A stretch of DNA of 43,869 nucleotides from a virus, in IMG/VR virus record IMGVR_UViG_3300031159_000005; one strand, given 5' to 3'. The notes beneath the pieces were generated by a model. It had not been told where the DNA came from and made no database searches. It worked only from the letters and a program-made list of their open reading frames with translations. The position numbers were made by a program, and so were the translations under genes. Positions 10,595 to 17,659 of the stretch are shown piece by piece (positions within the stretch are counted from its first letter, which is position 1; the number at the start of each line of letters is the position of its first letter).

Positions 10595-10837
10595 ATGACG
10601 GCAAAACAACAACTCTACCAAATCGCCGTAGATGACAGCCAGCCGCTTGAAGAACGATACGCAGCCGCCCGGGAGCTGCAGCGCCGCACGCTCAACTCGC
10701 GCAAGATATACGATCTGATCCGTCTGTGGCCGTATCACACGCCGTCAGAGATTGCAGACATGCTGGACGTGACCGTGCCGACGGTGGTCGGAGTGGCGAG
10801 TCATTACGGACTTTGGCAGAGGAGGCTGTCGGGATGA
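10595..10837 (+). CDS. 80-aa hypothetical protein, possible HTH (SEIADMLDVTVPTVVGVASHYG)
   Basis: ATG 10595 directly follows the MTase stop. ATGA overlap with the next gene. The track ORF from 10496 is an extension. Confidence 0.55.
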   Translation: MTAKQQLYQIAVDDSQPLEERYAAARELQRRTLNSRKIYDLIRLWPYHTPSEIADMLDVTVPTVVGVASHYGLWQRRLSG

Positions 10838-13365
10838 GCGAAAGATACATCGAGTTTCTGAAGTCGAAAATCGTCGTCGCAAAAGAATCCGGATTTGAAG
10901 TCTATCCGGACATGATCAATCCGCGCCTGAAACCGCACCAGCGAGACGCGGTAATGTGGGCAGTCCGCGGCGGGCGCCGGGCGTTGTTCGAAGCGTTTGG
11001 GCTCGGAAAAACGGTCCAGCAGCTCGAATGGTGCCGCATCGTTTCGGAGCATATTGGCGGAAAGGCGCTAATCGTCCTGCCGCTGGGCGTCATGCAAGAG
11101 TTCAAACGGGACGCCGTTGAATTGCTCGGCATGGACGAGCCTGAATACGTTCGGACGATGGCTGAGGTACAGAATGCTAACGGTCAGATCCTGCTCACGA
11201 ACTATGAACGGGTGCGTGACGGGGACATCGACCCGACATACTTCACGGCCACGTCGCTCGACGAGGCGTCCGTGCTGCGGAGTTTCGGCAGTAAGACGTA
11301 CCAGACGTTCCTGGATAAGTTCCGCGGGGTGCCGTACAAGCTTGTCTGCACGGCGACGCCAAGTCCGAACCGGTACAAGGAACTGATCCATTACGCCGGA
11401 TACCTCGAGATCATGGACACCGGGCAGGCCCTCACTCGGTTCTTCCAGCGGGATAGTACGAAGGCGAATAACTTGACCATCTACCCGCACAAGGAAGACG
11501 AGTTCTGGCTATGGGTGTCGACCTGGGCGCTGTTCATTACGAAACCGAGCGATCTCGGATATTCCGATGAGGGCTATGATCTTCCACCGCTCGAAGTTCG
11601 GTATCACAAGCTTCCGGTCAATCACGAGGAGGCTGGAGCAGAGCGCGATGGCCAACTGCTCATCATCCGGGACGCCGCTGTCGGCCTGACGGAAGCAGCG
11701 CGTGAGAAGCGCGAATCGATCGCCGCGCGCGTCGCAAAGGCGGCTGAGATCGTCGCGGAGAGCCCGGACGACCATTTCATCATCTGGCATGACCTCGAGG
11801 CGGAGCGCCACGCGATCAAGGAGGAAATTCCGGATGTGGTGGACATTTACGGCAGCCTCGATCTGGAGATACGGGAGCAGCGCGTCTCGGACTTTTCGAA
11901 TGGCCTGATCAAGTATTTCGCGACGAAGAAGGAACTGTCGGGCAGCGGTTGCAACTTCCAGCGGCATTGCCACCGGGCTATCTTCGTCGGGATCGACTAC
12001 GAGTTCAACGATTTCATCCAGGCCATCCACCGGATATACCGTTTTTTGCAGACGAAGAAGGTCATCATCGACATCATCTATACGGAGAGTGAGGAGCAAA
12101 TCCTGCAAACGCTCCTCAAGAAGTGGGAGCAACATAATCACATGGTCCAGAAGATGACGGAGATCATCCGGAAATACGGCTTGTCCGGAGGAACTTCGGT
12201 CATCAACAAACTGGCCAGAACGATTGGGGTGGAACGTGTGAAGATCGAGACGGAGTGGTATACGGCCGTAAATAACGACTGCGTTCTGGAAACGGAGCAA
12301 ATGCCGGACAACAGCATCGACCTGATTCATACGTCGATTCCGTTCAGCAATCACTACGAATACACGCCGTCATACAACGACTTCGGCCACAACGAAGACA
12401 CGGCGCGATTTTTCGAGCAAATGGACTTTCTGACGCCGCAGCTCCTCCGGATCCTGAAGCCCGGCCGGATCGCAGCGATCCACGTCAAGGACCGTGTCCT
12501 CTATGGAAATGCGACCGGGACCGGAATGCCGACGATCGAGCCATTCCACGCGCTGTGCATCGATCATTACATGCGGCACGGGTTCCAGTATTGCGGCATG
12601 ATCACGGTCGTGACGGACGTCGTCCGCGAGAACAACCAGACATATCGGCTTGGCTGGACGGAACAGTGCAAGGACGGTACGAAGATGGGCGTCGGGTGTC
12701 CGGAGTACATCCTAATTTTCCGGAAGCTTCCGACAGACACGAGCCGCGCATACGCGGATGTTCCGGTGGTCAAGACGAAGGAGCAATACACGCGGGCGCA
12801 ATGGCAAATCGACGCGCATGCGTTCTGGCGGTCTAGCGGCGACCGGCTGCTGACGAAGGATGAGCTTGCGAGCTACCCGATCGACCAGCTGCAGGCGGTG
12901 TATCGCAAGTTTTCGCGCGGTACGGTCTACGACTACCGCGAGCATGTGGAGTTGGCGAAGAAGCTCGACCGCGACGGCCGTCTGCCGGCGACGTTCATGG
13001 TCGTGGCGCCGGGCAGCTGGGATGACAGCGTATGGGATGACATCGTGCGGATGCGGACGCTGAATACGTCGCAGAGCCAAAAGCGCCTGCAAATGCACGT
13101 CTGCCCGCTTCAGCTCGACATCGTCGAGCGGATCATCAATCGGTATTCCAATCCCGGTGAAGTCGTTCTGGATCCTTTCGGCGGGCTCATGACGGTTCCT
13201 TACGTCGCCGTGAAGATGGGGCGGAAGGGGTACGGGATCGAGCTCAATACGGACTACTTCCGGGACGGACTCGGATATCTAAAAGCCGCGGCGGAAGAAA
13301 TCACGATGCCGACGCTGTTTGATCTCGAGGATTTGCGGGTCCAGGAATCGGCCGCTGGAGCATAA
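10834..13365 (+). CDS. SNF2/DEAD-like helicase fused to a beta-class N6-adenine/N4-cytosine DNA methyltransferase (843 aa)
   Basis: N-terminal LKPHQRDAV..FGLGKTVQ (motif I), SLDEASVL (DEAx), TATPSPN. C-terminal IDLIHTSIPF (motif IV variant) followed by DPFGGLMTVP (motif I), i.e. PF01555-type order. Confidence 0.8.
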   Translation: MSERYIEFLKSKIVVAKESGFEVYPDMINPRLKPHQRDAVMWAVRGGRRALFEAFGLGKTVQQLEWCRIVSEHIGGKALIVLPLGVMQEFKRDAVELLGMDEPEYVRTMAEVQNANGQILLTNYERVRDGDIDPTYFTATSLDEASVLRSFGSKTYQTFLDKFRGVPYKLVCTATPSPNRYKELIHYAGYLEIMDTGQALTRFFQRDSTKANNLTIYPHKEDEFWLWVSTWALFITKPSDLGYSDEGYDLPPLEVRYHKLPVNHEEAGAERDGQLLIIRDAAVGLTEAAREKRESIAARVAKAAEIVAESPDDHFIIWHDLEAERHAIKEEIPDVVDIYGSLDLEIREQRVSDFSNGLIKYFATKKELSGSGCNFQRHCHRAIFVGIDYEFNDFIQAIHRIYRFLQTKKVIIDIIYTESEEQILQTLLKKWEQHNHMVQKMTEIIRKYGLSGGTSVINKLARTIGVERVKIETEWYTAVNNDCVLETEQMPDNSIDLIHTSIPFSNHYEYTPSYNDFGHNEDTARFFEQMDFLTPQLLRILKPGRIAAIHVKDRVLYGNATGTGMPTIEPFHALCIDHYMRHGFQYCGMITVVTDVVRENNQTYRLGWTEQCKDGTKMGVGCPEYILIFRKLPTDTSRAYADVPVVKTKEQYTRAQWQIDAHAFWRSSGDRLLTKDELASYPIDQLQAVYRKFSRGTVYDYREHVELAKKLDRDGRLPATFMVVAPGSWDDSVWDDIVRMRTLNTSQSQKRLQMHVCPLQLDIVERIINRYSNPGEVVLDPFGGLMTVPYVAVKMGRKGYGIELNTDYFRDGLGYLKAAAEEITMPTLFDLEDLRVQESAAGA

Positions 13366-14293: not shown

Positions 14294-14300
14294 AAAAATT

Positions 14301-14325
14301 CCCCTGCATATGGGCCATGCAGGGG
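14301..14325 (-). terminator. Perfect 9-bp hairpin CCCCTGCAT/ATGCAGGGG; the T-run is only on the minus-strand side (A7 upstream on +), so orientation and role are ambiguous
   Basis: Read directly. No minus-strand gene lies nearby. Confidence 0.35.
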
Positions 14326-14379
14326 AAAACCGAAAACACGTTCTCATACCCAATATATCACAATGTGAGGTGTAGGGGT

Positions 14380-14826
14380 ATGGGGGCAAAACAGATCAGT
14401 TTTGGCATATACGAGATTGATGAGGAAGCGACGAAGGAGGCGGTCGAAAAGTACCTGCTGCAAGCGCGGGAGTACATGGTGACCGAATACATCCCATTGG
14501 AGCCGAAAGTCACGCCGCTGTACGAGCCGCGCTATCATGGACAGACGAATGCGGTCGGCTCGCAGACGGAGATCATCGCTGTCGCAATTGTGGACGAGAT
14601 CGAGCGCCGCCGCCGGCACGTCGAACGCGTCGAGAAGGCTGTCAGCCGGCTGGGGGCGCGGCAACAGAAACTGATCCGCATGCGATACCTGGACGACGAC
14701 AATGTAATGGATTCAGACGTTGCCGAAGCGCTCGGGTACAGCACCCGGCATTACCGGCGGCTCAAGTCGATCGCCATCTACAGGTTGGCGGCAGCCCTGG
14801 GACTGGTGGTGCTGAAAGAAGACTGA
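14380..14826 (+). CDS. ArpU-family late transcriptional regulator (sigma region-4-like)
   Basis: ..LEPKVTPLYEPRYHGQTN...RRRRHVERVEKAVSRLGARQQKLIRMRYL..D..VAEALGYSTRHYRRLKSIAIYRLA pattern, positioned before the packaging genes. ATG 14380 follows GAGGTGTAGGGG. Confidence 0.7.
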   Translation: MGAKQISFGIYEIDEEATKEAVEKYLLQAREYMVTEYIPLEPKVTPLYEPRYHGQTNAVGSQTEIIAVAIVDEIERRRRHVERVEKAVSRLGARQQKLIRMRYLDDDNVMDSDVAEALGYSTRHYRRLKSIAIYRLAAALGLVVLKED

Positions 14827-14832
14827 AAATCA

Positions 14833-14871
14833 TGTCCGCTCTATGTCCGCATTTTGTCCGCATTTTGTCCG
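14833..14871 (+). repeat. Four direct TGTCCG(C/A) repeats with exact 11-bp phasing (14833, 14844, 14855, 14866)
   Basis: Counted directly. They start 7 nt after the ArpU-like stop and end 21 nt before a -10 element. Confidence 0.85.
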
Positions 14872-14889
14872 ACTTTTTCGGAAATTCCG

Positions 14890-14898
14890 TGCTACTAT
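14890..14898 (+). promoter_or_regulatory. Extended -10 promoter TGcTACTAT without a recognisable -35 (activator-dependent late promoter candidate)
   Basis: Read directly. The -35 position reads CGACTT. Confidence 0.5.
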
Positions 14899-15180
14899 GA
14901 TATCAGCGAAGCATTTGCCCGCCGCGCCGCTGAACTGTCTGTCCTAGGCGGCCGGTGACGCGGCATCCCGGGACGGCGGGCGAATCCCGCCTGTCGCTCC
15001 GAAATCAATCAGCCGTTGCGGCATCGGTTGTAGAGTCCATGGGGCTGCGGGCGAGATGGGCTTCCAGGGCCAATTGATCGGGACTGAACCCGTGCAAGAC
15101 GCGGCAGTAGGTCCCCACCGGCCCGATACGAGGGATCGGGGTTAGCCCGGTCGCCGTCCAGATGGACGGTAAACTGAATA

Positions 15181-15312
15181 GGGATGCGGTGGTGGAATAG
15201 GTAGACACTTGCGGGTGGCGCTCCTACTGCCAAGATCGCAACTGAGCGGTATGATCACCCGAACTGGTAGAGCGCATGCAGGGTGCAAATCCCTGCCCGC
15301 ATCCCAACACCA
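15181..15312 (+). ncRNA. tRNA-like module, non-canonical and too long for a tRNA
   Basis: 9-bp acceptor-like helix GGGAUGCGG/CCGCAUCCC. Class-II-like D arm UGGUGGAAUAGGUAGACAC. T-arm-like GCAGGG-UGCAAAU-CCCUGC. A roughly 57-nt GCGCUC...GAGCGC insert sits where the anticodon arm should be. The 3' tail is AACACCA. Confidence 0.4.
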
Positions 15313-15325
15313 AAATTGCATTCAT

Positions 15326-15356
15326 GGTCGTCGATCATCGGCGACCTTTTCTTTTT
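15326..15356 (+). terminator. Intrinsic terminator GGTCGTCGAT-c-ATCGGCGACC + TTTTCTTTTT
   Basis: Read directly. Confidence 0.8.
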
Positions 15357-15533
15357 GCCTGCTCATCCCCAAATTGCCGCAGGACCGAAGCCTGCTCGCG
15401 GGGCAAAGCGAGACAGGTGCGGCGCCCTCCTTTCGACCGCGACCGGAGCGGTGAATGGGCAGGACCCGGGCGCCGGCCGGCCGCGCAAACCATTCGGAAG
15501 TGCCGGCCTCAAATATTCAGGGGAGGGGTCACA

Positions 15534-15656
15534 GTGAAAGACAAGTCGTTGAAATTGCCGAAGAACTTTGCCGGATGGATTAGCGTGAAACATCGTATCA
15601 TCTGGAGCGTGCATCCGCATCGGCGGGACAAGCGGGCAGGGGTAATCAGGAAATGA
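15534..15656 (+). CDS. Possible 40-aa basic micro-ORF (GTG start after GGGGAGGGG)
   Basis: Own translation: VKDKSLKLPKNFAGWISVKHRIIWSVHPHRRDKRAGVIRK. ATGA coupling to the next micro-ORF. Confidence 0.35.
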   Translation: MKDKSLKLPKNFAGWISVKHRIIWSVHPHRRDKRAGVIRK

Positions 15657-15757
15657 AAAAGTGGCTAAATCGATTCGTGAGACGGTTGTCGCTCGCCGGA
15701 CCGGATCCGCGCAACCGGAAAGAGTGGCGGGAGAGGAAAAGAATTAATTACAGCTGA
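15653..15757 (+). CDS. Possible 34-aa Arg-rich micro-ORF
   Basis: Own translation: MKKWLNRFVRRLSLAGPDPRNRKEWRERKRINYS. Confidence 0.3.
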   Translation: MKKWLNRFVRRLSLAGPDPRNRKEWRERKRINYS

Positions 15758-15815
15758 TCTACAAAAAAAGGAAATTTCCTCCTTGTGTCGAAATTGTGAT
15801 GCGGGGAGGTGCACT

Positions 15816-16037
15816 ATGGAACTAAGATTAATCGAAAGGAAGATTTCTTCAGTTGGCTATGGAAATCATCACGGTAAGACTATCAACATGATTTATGAAT
15901 GTCCTTGTGGGAAAGGCACAGTGACATATGAAATTGATGATATCCCAGGATTCAAAAATTGGGATATTTACTGCGAGTGCAAAGACTGCAACGAAAAATA
16001 TGCCTTTAAAAGAGGCGGGATTGCTGAGATGAAATGA
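15816..16037 (+). CDS. 73-aa AT-rich Zn-ribbon-like hypothetical protein (CPCG...CECKDC)
   Basis: ATG 15816 lies 5 nt after GGGGAGGT. The track ORF opens at 15783. Confidence 0.55.
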   Translation: MELRLIERKISSVGYGNHHGKTINMIYECPCGKGTVTYEIDDIPGFKNWDIYCECKDCNEKYAFKRGGIAEMK

Positions 16038-16107
16038 GCGAGATATTGAAATTTTGTAGCACCTGCGGGTGCTTTTTCTTTTGCCATTTTTCAAGCGAGG
16101 TGGTGAT

Positions 16108-16716
16108 ATGCGGGAAGTCCAGCCGATCCGCGATCCCGAGTTGATCGTGGAAATCCAGAATTATTTGAAGGTTCGAAATTTCCGCAATTACCTGCTCTTC
16201 ACAATGGGGATCCACTGCGGGCTGCGCGTGTCGGACCTGTTGAGCCTCAAGGTAGGCGATGTCCGGGACCAGTTGCATATCAACTATGTCGCAAAGAAGA
16301 CCAGGAACCGCCGGAAGCGCCGGAAGGAGAGACGGTTTATCATTCATCCGTCGTACCGTGATGACCTGATGATCTACATTCAGGACATGGACGACGATGA
16401 ATATTTATTCGCATCGCGGCAAAAAAAATCAACCGGCGAAAAAGGGCTGCCGATCAGCCGGCAGATGGCCTGGCGAATGATTTCGGATGTCGCGCAGCGG
16501 TTCGGGCTCGAAGATATCGGTACACACTCGCTCCGGAAGACGTGGGGTTATCACATGATCATGAACGCCCCGCGTGAGCAGTGGGGCTATGTCATGGCGT
16601 TACTCATGGAAGCGTTCGGACACGAGTCGCAGGAGGTCACTTTGCGGTATTTGGGGCTCACTCAGGACATGCTCGACCGCATGATTCTGAGGTTGAGTTT
16701 TACAAAAACCGGGTGA
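16108..16716 (+). CDS. Short (202 aa) tyrosine recombinase-family protein, catalytic domain only
   Basis: GLRVSDL (Arg I), THSLRKTW (HxxR), FGHES..VTLRYL (His/Tyr) in canonical order. No N-terminal core-binding domain. Confidence 0.7.
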   Translation: MREVQPIRDPELIVEIQNYLKVRNFRNYLLFTMGIHCGLRVSDLLSLKVGDVRDQLHINYVAKKTRNRRKRRKERRFIIHPSYRDDLMIYIQDMDDDEYLFASRQKKSTGEKGLPISRQMAWRMISDVAQRFGLEDIGTHSLRKTWGYHMIMNAPREQWGYVMALLMEAFGHESQEVTLRYLGLTQDMLDRMILRLSFTKTG

Positions 16717-16788: not shown

Positions 16789-16833
16789 AATTATGTTTAA
16801 GTAAATCTTAAATGCAATTATCTGGAAAATCTG

Positions 16834-16857
16834 CCGAGGGAAAATCCTCGGTTTTTT
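16834..16857 (+). terminator. Intrinsic terminator CCGAGG-gaaaat-CCTCGG + TTTTTT
   Basis: Read directly. Confidence 0.8.
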
Positions 16858-16900: not shown

Positions 16901-17659
16901 GTGAAAACAACTCAACCTGTCGGAGGTGGGGTGGATGTAGTGGCGCCGAAACGAAGTCCGCTTGAACGGAAAGCCTTCAAAATGTGGGCCGCAGCCGGCC
17001 GCCCGCGGCAGTTGAAATGGATCGCGGACGAGCTCGGTGTTTCGCCGGAAATGATCCGCAAGTGGAAGCATTATTACAAGTGGGACGATCGCGAAGATCC
17101 GCGGCCCGGGGCGCCGCGCGGCAATAAGAACGCCGTCGGCAACAAGGGTGGCGCGCCGAAGGGGAACAGGAACGCGTTCAAGCACGGGCTCTACGCGAAA
17201 TATCTGCCCGAAGAGGTCCTGGAGATCGCCAAAGAGATCGAGGACAGCGACCCGCTCGACATGCTCTGGAACAACATCATCATCCTGCAAGCCAAACTGC
17301 TGCACGGGCAGAAAATCATACATGTCCGGGATCAGAACGATCTTACGCGAGTGCTGAAGCGTGAAAAACTTGGTGTTATGGTCGAGGAGCGCGAATATGA
17401 ATTGCAATTTGCCTGGGACAAGTTCGCGGCTGCCTCCAAAGCCGAGGTTACGATCATGCGCGAGTTCCGCGCCGCAGTCAAGCAATTCCTTGATGTCGCC
17501 CCCGAAAACGACGAGCGCCGGGCGAAGCTGGAGCTTATGCAGGCGCAGGTTGCCAAACTCCGGGCCGAGACGAAAGAACTGGAGGGAGACAGCGAGGGCA
17601 ATGTGACCATCGTCGACGACATCCCGTATGTGCCGCCGGCAGGTGATGCAGATGGTTAA
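16901..17659 (+). CDS. terS: Terminase small subunit (start uncertain: GTG 16901, 16931 or 16940)
   Basis: N-terminal HTH-like KWIADELGVSPEMIRKWK, repeated GAPRGNKNAVGNKGGAPKGNRNAFKHG motif typical of this TerS family, and position before terL. Confidence 0.75.
   Translation: MKTTQPVGGGVDVVAPKRSPLERKAFKMWAAAGRPRQLKWIADELGVSPEMIRKWKHYYKWDDREDPRPGAPRGNKNAVGNKGGAPKGNRNAFKHGLYAKYLPEEVLEIAKEIEDSDPLDMLWNNIIILQAKLLHGQKIIHVRDQNDLTRVLKREKLGVMVEEREYELQFAWDKFAAASKAEVTIMREFRAAVKQFLDVAPENDERRAKLELMQAQVAKLRAETKELEGDSEGNVTIVDDIPYVPPAGDADG

Follow-up and report, generated by a model that had tools for sequence, protein, structure and literature searches.

A tRNA-Leu-like RNA without an anticodon arm in the non-coding leader of a predicted ArpU-controlled phage late operon

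We analysed the region between the late-activator gene arpU and the first downstream gene (positions 14827–15533) in a 43.9-kb viral DNA, the IMG/VR record IMGVR_UViG_3300031159_000005, the whole of which is referred to as the window. The region is non-coding, and its 3′ module is a fold under selection, derived from a leucine transfer RNA (tRNA-Leu), in which the anticodon arm is absent. Pattern scans detected this module, in part or as a whole, in more than 200 IMG/VR viral contigs. The region probably represents the non-coding head of an ArpU-controlled late operon, in which the tRNA-like module would be processed to a stable RNA. The original prediction for this region, made from the letters alone, proposed a unit of promoter, single ornate RNA of about 450 nucleotides (nt) and terminator between the late regulator and the packaging genes. 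The unit from promoter to terminator was borne out, while the RNA part was replaced by a chain of modules, since relatives carry its pieces in different combinations.

Structure and covariation of the tRNA-Leu-like RNA

A tRNA-like module had been suspected in the original prediction; it is confirmed and placed here at 15183–15303. It consists of a 7-base-pair (bp) acceptor stem (GAUGCGG/CCGCAUC), a D arm (GUG-GAAUAGGUAGA-CAC) and a T arm with a 6-bp stem and the loop UGCAAAU, and it carries the tertiary-contact bases U8, A14, G18 G19, U54, C56 and A58, with G at position 55 (Table 1).

Related loci and contigs, denoted by L-numbers (L246, phage phiFL2A; L247, Listeria phage B054; L248, phi3T; L249, vB_Edu_21C1), were drawn from three pattern scans covering IMG/VR viral contigs, one genome per species, and metagenomes. 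The sets of the tRNA-like family were gathered with exact patterns, and all family counts given here are lower bounds. The first set was chosen by its T arm with the pattern GGTGCAAATCCNTGCCCG and came from at least 120 viral contigs, nearly all of which carry the module on this common plan; 74 distinct scaffolds among the matches listed were aligned, with the insert swapped for a linker. In these 74 members, pairing amounted to 95.6% in the acceptor, 99.5% in the D stem and 99.1% in the T stem, and was 53% past the seventh acceptor pair. Four acceptor pairs were represented by all Watson–Crick types, and C:G was replaced by U:A in the D stem of 16 of the 74 sequences. The covariation score was 0.395, compared with 0.126 after shuffling (reached in 0 of 500 shuffles) and at most 0.10 with slid partners.

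Because the first set had been selected by its T arm, a second search was seeded from the D arm, giving 110 distinct modules among the matches listed. The loop UGCAAAU was found in 103 of them, and T-stem pairs 2–4 and acceptor pairs 1–5 covaried. The family consensus reads 5′ N4CGG-UG-GYGGAAUAGGUAGACRC and 3′ AUGCARGG-UGCAAAU-CCYUGC-CCGN4, with a covarying 7-bp acceptor; positions 15183–15208 and 15276–15303 of the window fit this consensus, and all 16 pairs form. Covariation, one of the checks proposed with the original prediction, was thus strong for the tRNA-like module, but it was weak for module A of the leader, described below. The discriminator base was random (A in 36, U in 33, C in 24 and G in 17 of the 110 modules), and CCA was encoded in two. 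A tRNA or transfer-messenger RNA (tmRNA) gene lay within 300 nt of 23 modules, and a ribosome-binding site with a start codon followed within 60 nt downstream of 32.

The D-arm pattern also caught genuine phage tRNA-Leu(UAA) genes (L254, L275, L328 and L341), in which the D arm is identical; in these genes, the anticodon arm is normal, a variable arm is present and the T loop reads UUCGAUU. The sharing of this D arm indicates that the family derives from class II tRNA-Leu. In conjunction with the pairing data, these observations identify the 3′ module as a selected, tRNA-Leu-derived fold without an anticodon arm.

The position of the variable arm is taken by an insert whose length varies between essentially zero (L287, phiFL2A) and about 140 nt, with very different sequences. 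The inserts fold on a common plan, in which an A/U-rich linker of about 10 nt is followed by a helix closing 2 nt before the T stem. The window insert matches this plan, its closing helix (15218–23/15270–75) being followed by AU and then the T stem. Five sequences (the window, L003, L226, Paenibacillus phage Pd_22F and L002) share the insert class of the window; 99.4% of the alignment cells pair, and the closing helix and the inner hairpin show three covarying pairs each. Minimal members without an insert were found in L287, L250, phiFL2A and L233, and also in L143, where the D arm is missing as well. A search of the window for an antisense target of the conserved insert loop gave nothing above chance. 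Hairpins with a T loop of the GTTCRANNC type were noted in 12 of 85 inserts of the family.

Two identities suggested by the insert were examined and rejected. Its a-b-hairpin-a′-b′ topology resembles that of a hepatitis delta virus-like or theta ribozyme, but no Rfam match was found, a linker of 5 nt lies between the inner hairpin and the P1-like strand, and other family members carry unrelated inserts or none. A mini-tmRNA, read as a short frame starting from GCA in the insert, was dropped because the frame spans 2–10 codons and is not conserved, and G3:U70 is absent.

The module might simply be an unusual tRNA gene with an intron, or a tRNA pseudogene in decay, given that its D arm is identical to that of phage tRNA-Leu, that the acceptor, U8, A14, G18 G19 and U54–A58 are tRNA-like, and that it occurs in tRNA clusters. 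We regard this as scarcely credible. No anticodon stem-loop was recognized in the window module or in the inserts inspected, including the 40 shortest, some of which are too short for one (this inspection was not a systematic search), and removal of the insert as an intron still leaves no anticodon arm. The loop UGCAAAU in 103 of 110 modules, the retained 6-bp T stem and the compensatory changes point to purifying selection and not to decay. ARAGORN and the Rfam tRNA models reject the module: ARAGORN called no gene in the window and only one of the 110 family modules. The Rfam models singled out in the original prediction (GOLLD, ROOL, raiA, tmRNA and tRNA) gave no match, nor did any other Rfam family, at the gathering threshold over the whole window. 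At E ≤ 10, positions 14700–15800 gave only three chance-level hits to unrelated small RNAs, none to a tRNA. In 31 related loci, the gathering threshold returned only tRNAs, DUF3800-VII and twister-sister.

Distribution of the family among phages

To place the family among isolated phages, the consensus scaffold was compared by blastn with 50,697 isolated phage genomes, and matches were obtained in 49 records of Firmicute phages, most of them covering about half of the query. They include Listeria phages (B054, LP-101, LP-114 and vB_LmoS_188), Enterococcus phages (phiFL2A/B, phiFL3A/B, IME197 and the Herelleviridae vB_Edu_21C1 and 113), Bacillus phages (phi3T and its hybrids, Goe27 and BUCT082), Brochothrix and Geobacillus phages, phage D6E and Paenibacillus phage Pd_22F. 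In nearly all of the 49 records, no annotated feature lies under the match, and none of the four GenBank records inspected carries an RNA gene there. When the whole region was used as the query against isolated phages, only the tRNA-like part matched, in Pd_22F.

The phiFL2A copy is located in the leader between arpU and terS, between a terminator and a tRNA-Arg, and has the 7-bp acceptor, a shortened D region and the T arm, with no insert. In vB_Edu_21C1, a virulent Schiekvirus, a phage tmRNA (1445–1792, tag AKNEELLAVA) and, starting 4 nt after it, a complete module (1797–1920) both stand inside the tRNA cluster. The phi3T copy adjoins yonN and yonO, and its T stem is compensated (GGGAGG/CCUCCC). 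The B054 copy is followed by a terminator, one module in L176 lies directly after the CCA of a tRNA, and the unit of Pd_22F runs into convergent genes. GenBank lists coding sequences over the 3′ part of the module and the terminator in B054 (gp75, L247 1820–1954) and phi3T (phi3T_57, L248 1906–2058); both are probably spurious open reading frames (ORFs).

Across 111 viral loci, the only recurrent neighbours were a terminase gene downstream (18 loci) and clusters of regulator-like genes upstream (8, 4 and 3 loci), whose tested representatives corresponded to RinA, ArpU and a weak sigma-like match. Since the other flanking genes are unrelated, the module appears to be a free-standing RNA gene that often, but not always, heads a late operon, and the family is not specific to late leaders because it is also found in tRNA clusters and before unrelated genes. 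A gene-specific cis-regulator was dropped from consideration, as the downstream genes are unrelated.

Relationship to known RNAs

In origin, the tRNA-like RNA is nearest to class II tRNA-Leu, with which it shares the D arm of phage tRNA-Leu(UAA) (3-bp stem and 11-nt loop with G18 G19), the 7-bp acceptor, U8 G9, a helix at the variable-arm position and the T-loop bases U54, C56 and A58. It differs in the missing anticodon arm, in a T stem of 6 bp instead of 5, giving an acceptor/T stack of 13 bp, in the T loop UGCAAAU with G55, in having neither a conserved discriminator nor CCA, and in a ‘variable arm’ of 0 to about 140 nt.

In topology, it is nearest to the tRNA-like domain of tmRNA, which likewise has a long helix at the variable-arm position leading to pseudoknotted RNA and no anticodon arm; helix 2 of tmRNA mimics a long variable arm. 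In contrast to tmRNA, the module has U3:A70 in place of G3:U70 (G:U is rare in the family), a proper D stem, no tag frame and no set of four pseudoknots, and the ARAGORN and Rfam tmRNA models give no match. Small phage RNAs and RNAs carried in a tRNA body offer further likenesses, compared here by description only. The small stable RNAs ‘species 1’ and ‘species 2’ of phage T4 are located in its tRNA cluster and matured with the tRNAs, and in engineered tRNA scaffolds a foreign RNA within the tRNA body is stabilized and processed. Unlike such scaffolds, the family has natural members without an insert, which argues against a pure carrier role.

As a tRNA mimic, the module is YrlA-like. YrlA, a bacterial Y RNA, is a non-coding RNA of bacteria and phages with acceptor-, D- and T-arm mimicry, and in Mycobacterium smegmatis, where its acceptor has 7 bp, it is an RNase P substrate to which CCA is added (Chen et al. 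2014, PMC4201824). YrlA, however, ends at the anticodon side in a Ro60-binding helix and is found beside Ro60, whereas the module ends at the acceptor; no Rfam match to YrlA was found (a Ro60 gene was not specifically searched for). The RNA thus fails the defining tests of tRNA, tmRNA and YrlA alike. Within an incomplete coverage of the literature, no description of this phage RNA family was found there or in Rfam 15.

Organization and non-coding status of the region

Positions 14827–15533 are non-coding, in agreement with the original prediction, which saw no credible coding capacity. Pfam gave no match for the three longest + strand ORFs, and the longest of these (15276–15656) contains an in-frame stop and many amino-acid changes in the 92%-identical metagenome relatives L235 and L229, so that no protein-coding frame is conserved in these homologues upstream of 15534. 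The changes end at the ribosome-binding site GGGGAGGGG and the GTG at 15534, beyond which 39 of 40 residues are kept. The in-frame stop and this halt of the changes indicate that the first real gene begins at 15534, where the region ends. A second small gene of 34 amino acids (15653–15757) overlaps it by ATGA and has no family match.

The fold of the whole region had z = −1.98 on the + strand and −0.24 on the − strand. Because the DNA is G+C-rich, folding energy alone is weak evidence; with such unimpressive z-scores, the argument for RNA structure is comparative and draws on the covariation of the tRNA-like module and the conservation of the other modules in relatives.

Table 1. Features between arpU and terS in the window
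Feature	Position	Strand	Sequence, parts or basis
arpU, late (packaging/lysis) transcriptional activator, Ltr superfamily	14317–14826	+	NCBIfam TIGR01637, PHROG 248
Four direct 7-nt repeats, read as ArpU boxes	14833–14872	+	TGTCCGC three times, TGTCCGA once
Extended −10 of the late promoter	14890–14898	+	TGCTACTAT; read from sequence
Module A, divergent	14917–14995	+	Outer helix GCCCGCCG (14917–24)/CGGCGGGC (14974–81)
Middle leader segment	14996–15074	+	Predicted energy-based fold only
Module D	15080–15131	+	Helix GGGAC (15080–84)/GUCCC (15111–15) around CCGUG-CAAGA-CGCGG (15090–15104), then CACCGGCCCGAUACGAGG
Hairpin B	15134–15152	+	GAUCGGG-GUUAG-CCCGGUC; 7-bp stem, conserved U.G pair, pentaloop
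Hairpin C	15154–15169	+	CCGUCC-AGAU-GGACGG, 1 base after hairpin B
tRNA-Leu-like RNA without anticodon arm	15183–15303	+	Acceptor 15183–89/15297–15303; U8 G9 at 15190–91
Parts of the tRNA-like module	15192–15208, 15209–17, 15278–96	+	D arm, linker (9 nt) and T arm; by eye and pair counting
Insert helices of the tRNA-like module	15218–23/15270–75, 15226–30/15246–50	+	Helix at variable-arm position; inner hairpin
Possible pseudoknot	15212–15261	+	CGGGUG (15212–17)/CACCCG (15256–61); complementary in 5 of 5 sequences, invariant and thus uninformative for covariation
Intrinsic terminator	15326–15356	+	GGUCGUCGAUCAUCGGCGACC then UUUUCUUUUU; terminator scan, −14.4 kcal/mol, z = −5.5
Terminator-like sites before terS (16901)	15326–15356, 16058–16073, 16833–16852	+	Terminator scan; the last about 50 nt before the terS start
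Untranslated spacer	15357–15533	+	Ends in ribosome-binding site GGGGAGGGG (15520–28); no significant Rfam match
First downstream gene, 40 amino acids	15534–15656	+	GTG start, strong ribosome-binding site; conserved in L235/L229; no family match

ArpU and the late promoter

The upstream gene product was identified as ArpU by TIGR01637 phage_arpU (71.3 bits against a cutoff of 43.1) and by PHROG 248 ‘transcriptional activator’ (E = 2e-30), with an additional weak match to Sigma70_r4. TGTCCGM repeats start at 14833, 14844, 14855 and 14866 in exact 11-bp phase, the first of them 7 nt past the arpU stop; this cluster, absent from the features listed in the original prediction, is the only one of its kind in the window. 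The extended −10 element of the original prediction is present downstream of the repeats, and transcription would start near 14905.

In Ltr-dependent systems, the late (terS) promoter is activated through two to four direct 7-nt repeats that directly follow the regulator gene and are both necessary and sufficient for this (Quiles-Puchalt et al. 2013, PMC3753634). This was shown for ArpU of phiFL2A, LtrC of phi55 and RinA of 80alpha and phi29, and the proteins bind the repeats (PMC3753634). The window has the same arrangement: an ArpU-family gene directly upstream, repeats of about 7 nt just past its stop in a number within the range of two to four, a promoter, and terS downstream on the same strand (16901–17659). 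By analogy with phiFL2A, phi55 and 80alpha, where the regulator binds such boxes, 14833–14898 is inferred to be an ArpU-dependent late promoter. As such, the boxes and the promoter are ordinary members of a known, experimentally defined class. In the window, unlike the published systems, terS is separated from the promoter by 2 kb, taken up by the leader and additional genes, and by three terminators; the published account treats the intergenic region as promoter and terminator only and describes no RNA elements (PMC3753634).

The relatives have other repeats behind other regulators, in each case followed by TGnTAnnAT. The repeats are TTGCAGATAT with ArpU in Pd_22F, ATTGTAC with RinA in L125, GCGAAC or GAGAAC with a sigma-region-4-like protein in L227, L236 and L241, TGGCAGA with ArpU in L234 and L242, and ATGCAGTAA with ArpU in Geobacillus phage PT9.1. 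At an equal distance from the repeats, the −10 element reads TGCTAATAT in phiFL2A, TGCTAAAAT in L227, L236, L241 and L136, and TGGTAATAT in L234 and L242. The plan of phiFL2A is that of the window, with the arpU stop, three copies of TTGGCGG and then TGCTAATAT; in its long leader, a terminator, a tRNA and a tRNA-like module of minimal form are present.

At the other end of arpU, a perfect 12-bp hairpin (TTCCCCTGCATG...CATGCAGGGGAA, 14299–14327) has the arpU start codon (14317) within its 3′ arm. The terminator scan scored it as a − strand terminator, and its + strand form could occlude the initiation of arpU translation. Further upstream, an ORF of 879 amino acids (10726–13365) is of the helicase-plus-methyltransferase type by eye.

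Terminators and transcription into terS

The terminator of the original prediction was recovered at 15326–15356, with a 9-bp stem and a T-run; L235 and L229 have two changes in its stem, with pairing kept, and a terminator is found at the equivalent leader end in L003, L125, L136, L226, L233, L243 and Listeria phage B054. With no terminator between arpU and the boxes, early transcripts would run into the leader and stop at this site. Such a stop fits the published control with phiFL2A, in which read-through from an upstream plasmid promoter failed to reach terS and ArpU-dependent transcription did reach it (PMC3753634). In phiFL2A (L246 1040–1860), the scan finds one terminator-like site (1239–1262) downstream of the late promoter; a second terminator-like hairpin just before terS was recognized by eye and is not in the scan list. 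The phiFL2A sequence leaves no space for a terminator between arpU and the boxes.

As the late promoter lies upstream of intrinsic terminators both in the window and in phiFL2A, the route by which ArpU or RinA transcripts reach terS needs to be explained. The comparison of the original prediction with the terminated late leader of lambda (PR′-6S-tR′) suits this layout, the sole cluster of ArpU boxes standing 5′ of three + strand terminators before terS. The lambda PR′/Q system and HK022 put share with the window a late promoter, a terminated non-coding leader and activator sites at the promoter, but conserved RNA modules make up the window leader, which greatly exceeds theirs in length, and the likeness is one of layout only. 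The terminators may be passed by leakage from a strong promoter, by a Q-like, terminator-resistant polymerase, or through a cis-acting element of the leader such as hairpins B and C.

The last of these routes would make the leader an RNA antiterminator, in which hairpins B and C modify the polymerase, as do HK022 put and the Bacillus EAR element, or bind a factor, as does lambda boxB, to allow read-through to terS. Several observations accord with it. The sole ArpU-box promoter is upstream of the three + strand terminators; in L233 and L243, the leader terminator lies only a few tens of bases before a gene read by eye as the small terminase, so near that no other promoter fits; and hairpin B, with its invariant stem and variable pentaloop, is present in the leaders of several genera of Bacillales, in most cases with a terminator close downstream. 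In phiFL2A, moreover, only the ArpU-dependent transcripts reach terS and those from the plasmid promoter miss it, with no terminator space between arpU and the boxes. The phiFL2A leader, however, shows no hairpin B by eye and yet supports ArpU-dependent expression of terS, which weakens the explanation by a cis-acting leader element. A polymerase arriving from upstream would transcribe the RNA element too, leaving read-through specific to one promoter unexplained, and the published data are explained equally well by leaky termination, given a late promoter that is strong and a plasmid promoter that is weak. The stem of hairpin B never varies, hence covariation gives no proof of action as RNA, and no Rfam match was found. 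On balance, we consider an RNA antiterminator unlikely.

Between the leader and terS, an ORF of 84 amino acids (15783–16037), cysteine-rich and without a family match, precedes a short (215 amino acids) tyrosine recombinase gene (16069–16716; Phage_integrase domain, PHROG 216), for which this is an unusual place. The large terminase TerL has only distant relatives in Firmicute phages, with at most 59% identity.

Modules of the leader upstream of the tRNA-like RNA

As judged by comparison of related leaders, the leader of about 450 nt appears to be a concatenation of separately evolving RNA modules and not a single fold. The four helices that the original prediction had drawn by eye (14921–14964, 14972–14995, 15117–15151 and 15154–15169) can all form, although their support from folding energy is weak. 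In module A, a nested hairpin within the outer helix has a loop with CUGUCC (14939–44), and a competing hairpin is possible at 14972–14995, which is kept in L235 despite a 3-nt insertion. Module A aligns with CCCGCCGC...CUCUGUCC...GCGGCGGG of L125, L128, L136, L227, L234, L236 and L241; the outer helix and the loop motif alone are common to these relatives, and covariation is weak. For the middle segment (14996–15074), the only relatives found were L235 and L237, 92–100% identical to the window. Module D recurs almost unchanged in L233, L239 and L243 within leaders that are different in other respects, and one one-sided change, from U.G to C-G, leaves its inner hairpin intact. The fold of 15075–15170 had z = −2.0 on the + strand and −0.47 on the − strand.

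Hairpin B occurs once in the window, against an expectation of none by chance, and its stem is invariant, with a variable loop (GUUAG, GAUAG, GAUAA or GUUAU). It was found in leader regions of Cohnella, Fictibacillus, Pullulanibacillus and Tepidibacillus prophages, of Geobacillus phage PT9.1 and of many metagenome contigs. Among the upstream regulators tested, ArpU, RinA or a weakly sigma-region-4-like protein was identified; no Ltr-type regulator was confirmed upstream of it in Pullulanibacillus (L223) and Tepidibacillus (L224). A unit that apparently comprises nothing but promoter, hairpin B and terminator is seen in the Tepidibacillus prophage. Hairpin C has a variable loop in close relatives (AGAU, UGAU, GGAU), and its place is taken by a hairpin of different sequence in Fictibacillus (CCUCUC-GUGU-GAGGGG) and PT9.1. 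In L226 and L231, a conserved element with a canonical T-arm-like hairpin (GGTCGCTGGTTCGAGTTCCAGC...) was noted upstream of hairpin B. Spacers of clustered regularly interspaced short palindromic repeats (CRISPR), from three arrays with different repeats, match the stretch of hairpins B and C (15131–15170). One, in an array shared by L230 and L240 (repeat GTTTCAATTCCTCATAGGTACGATCAAAAC), equals 15131–15170 exactly; the spacer of L238 (repeat CTTTCAATCCACGCACCCGCACGGGGTGCGAC) matches from 15143 with one mismatch; and an array in a Paenibacillaceae metagenome-assembled genome (L218) has a spacer spanning hairpin B.

Equivalent leaders contain other RNAs. The Rfam RNA DUF3800-VII (RF02967, 67 bits) is present in L128 (2372–2461, − strand) and L243 (4777–4866, + strand), adjoining the tRNA-like module or module D, and is absent from the window; true tRNAs are present in phiFL2A and L231. 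Only an acceptor/T-arm minihelix remains in L143 and L233, and L239 has no tRNA-like part. A weak DUF3800-VII match was also seen in L001 (2770–2867). Twister-sister ribozymes (RF02681, 43–57 bits) lie on the opposite strand within a few kb of the leaders in L101 (2892–2961), L233 (74–145) and L243 (2777–2846 and 3345–3416), all on the − strand.

These comparisons bear on two further explanations of the leader. In one, the whole transcript of 450 nt is a single large ornate RNA comparable to GOLLD or ROOL, one of whose domains is the tRNA-like part. The GOLLD, ROOL and DUF3800 motifs are phage-borne structured RNAs, often near tRNAs and ending at terminators (Weinberg et al. 2017, PMC5737381), and in agreement with such a unit, the pieces always share one transcript, bounded by a single promoter and a single terminator, several relatives repeat the order B, C, tRNA-like, and the + strand folds better than the − strand. 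The window, however, matches neither GOLLD, ROOL nor any other Rfam family at any threshold used, and it has a chain of small modules instead of one large fold. Hairpin B stands alone in Tepidibacillus and the tRNA-like RNA alone in tRNA clusters, the order is reversed in L143, the tRNA-like part is missing from L239, and no long-range pairing between modules is supported by relatives. A single ornate RNA is therefore quite improbable in our judgement.

In the other, the hairpin sequences act at the DNA level, as a cos or pac packaging site, a recombination site or a binding site of a regulator. The region is upstream of the terminase genes, a frequent place of cos/pac sites, the gene for a small tyrosine recombinase is nearby, hairpin B is imperfectly palindromic, with a variable centre in an otherwise invariant sequence, and CRISPR spacers target it. 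The half-sites of hairpin B always differ, however (GATCGGG and GACCGGG), giving a conserved U.G in RNA, unlike a symmetric DNA site. The compensatory changes in the tRNA-like module and hairpin C matter only in RNA, the strand asymmetry of folding favours RNA, and the CRISPR spacers show merely that this is conserved phage DNA. We therefore consider a DNA-level element very unlikely.

Proposed synthesis and processing of the tRNA-like RNA

Based on these results, we propose the following scheme for the non-coding head of the late operon. ArpU made from the adjacent upstream gene would bind the four TGTCCGM boxes and, as its counterparts do, activate the extended −10 promoter. Transcription from about 14905 would then yield a leader of about 450 nt composed of separate RNA modules, the last of which would adopt the acceptor, D and T arms of a class II tRNA, with a structured insert in place of the long variable arm. 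Enzymes of tRNA maturation may excise this module, RNase P cutting 5′ of the acceptor and RNase Z or trimming forming the 3′ end. The 7-bp acceptor is a major determinant of RNase P (PMC4201824). Release by RNase P and RNase Z is suggested because the acceptor is exactly 7 bp, modules abut the CCA end of a tRNA and a tmRNA, and CCA is unencoded. The unencoded CCA suits the RNase Z route of Firmicutes. The freed RNA of about 120 nt would persist and act in trans on a host factor that reads the elbow and acceptor of tRNA, and the missing anticodon, the 13-bp acceptor/T helix and G55 may keep it out of translation. The terminator at 15326–15356 would close the unit and halt read-through from the early arpU transcript, and late transcripts may pass the three terminators to terS by leakage or with a terminator-resistant RNA polymerase. 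Our best guess is that the module is a stable RNA processed like a tRNA, and that its target, again as a best guess, is a host protein recognizing these two parts of a tRNA. Since members without an insert exist, the conserved core and not the insert is probably the active part.

Several points weigh against this scheme. The same insert-free members suggest that the insert may be dispensable, and make a ‘cargo’ role doubtful. With the random discriminator and the absence of CCA, maturation of a tRNA-like 3′ end is an assumption, and the strong terminator directly after the module means that the whole 450-nt RNA could be the product. Single modules fold with z = −0.85 to −2.0, hardly better than shuffled sequence, and collection by exact patterns inflates the seeming conservation of the family at the pattern positions. 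Finally, the scheme gives modules A and D and hairpins B and C no role.

Implications for phage biology

The module in the window exposes a large RNA family that is missed by standard tools (ARAGORN, Rfam and GenBank annotation), and what had been a vague ‘ornate RNA’ is resolved into defined parts with testable roles. As Bacillus phi3T, Enterococcus phiFL2A and Listeria B054, all tractable phages, carry members, the function is directly testable. The layout also poses a concrete question about the well-studied ArpU/RinA regulator family, namely how transcripts reach terS past intrinsic terminators, and the positions of the terminators in phiFL2A bear on the interpretation of the published read-through control.

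In a wider and decidedly tentative proposal, Firmicute phages, both temperate and virulent, may share a hitherto undescribed group of tRNA-Leu-derived, anticodon-less RNAs, matured by RNase P and RNase Z, that are kept out of translation by a 13-bp acceptor/T helix and G55 and serve as decoys or regulators of a host protein reading the elbow and acceptor of tRNA. RNA polymerase that starts from Ltr (ArpU/RinA) promoters at these loci would resist terminators, so that Ltr proteins would be Q-like antiterminators instead of plain activators, and the late leader would be an insulated slot for such RNA genes. If this is the case, a tRNA-targeting defence toxin, leucyl-tRNA synthetase or a tRNA-processing enzyme would be the candidate targets of the decoy RNA.

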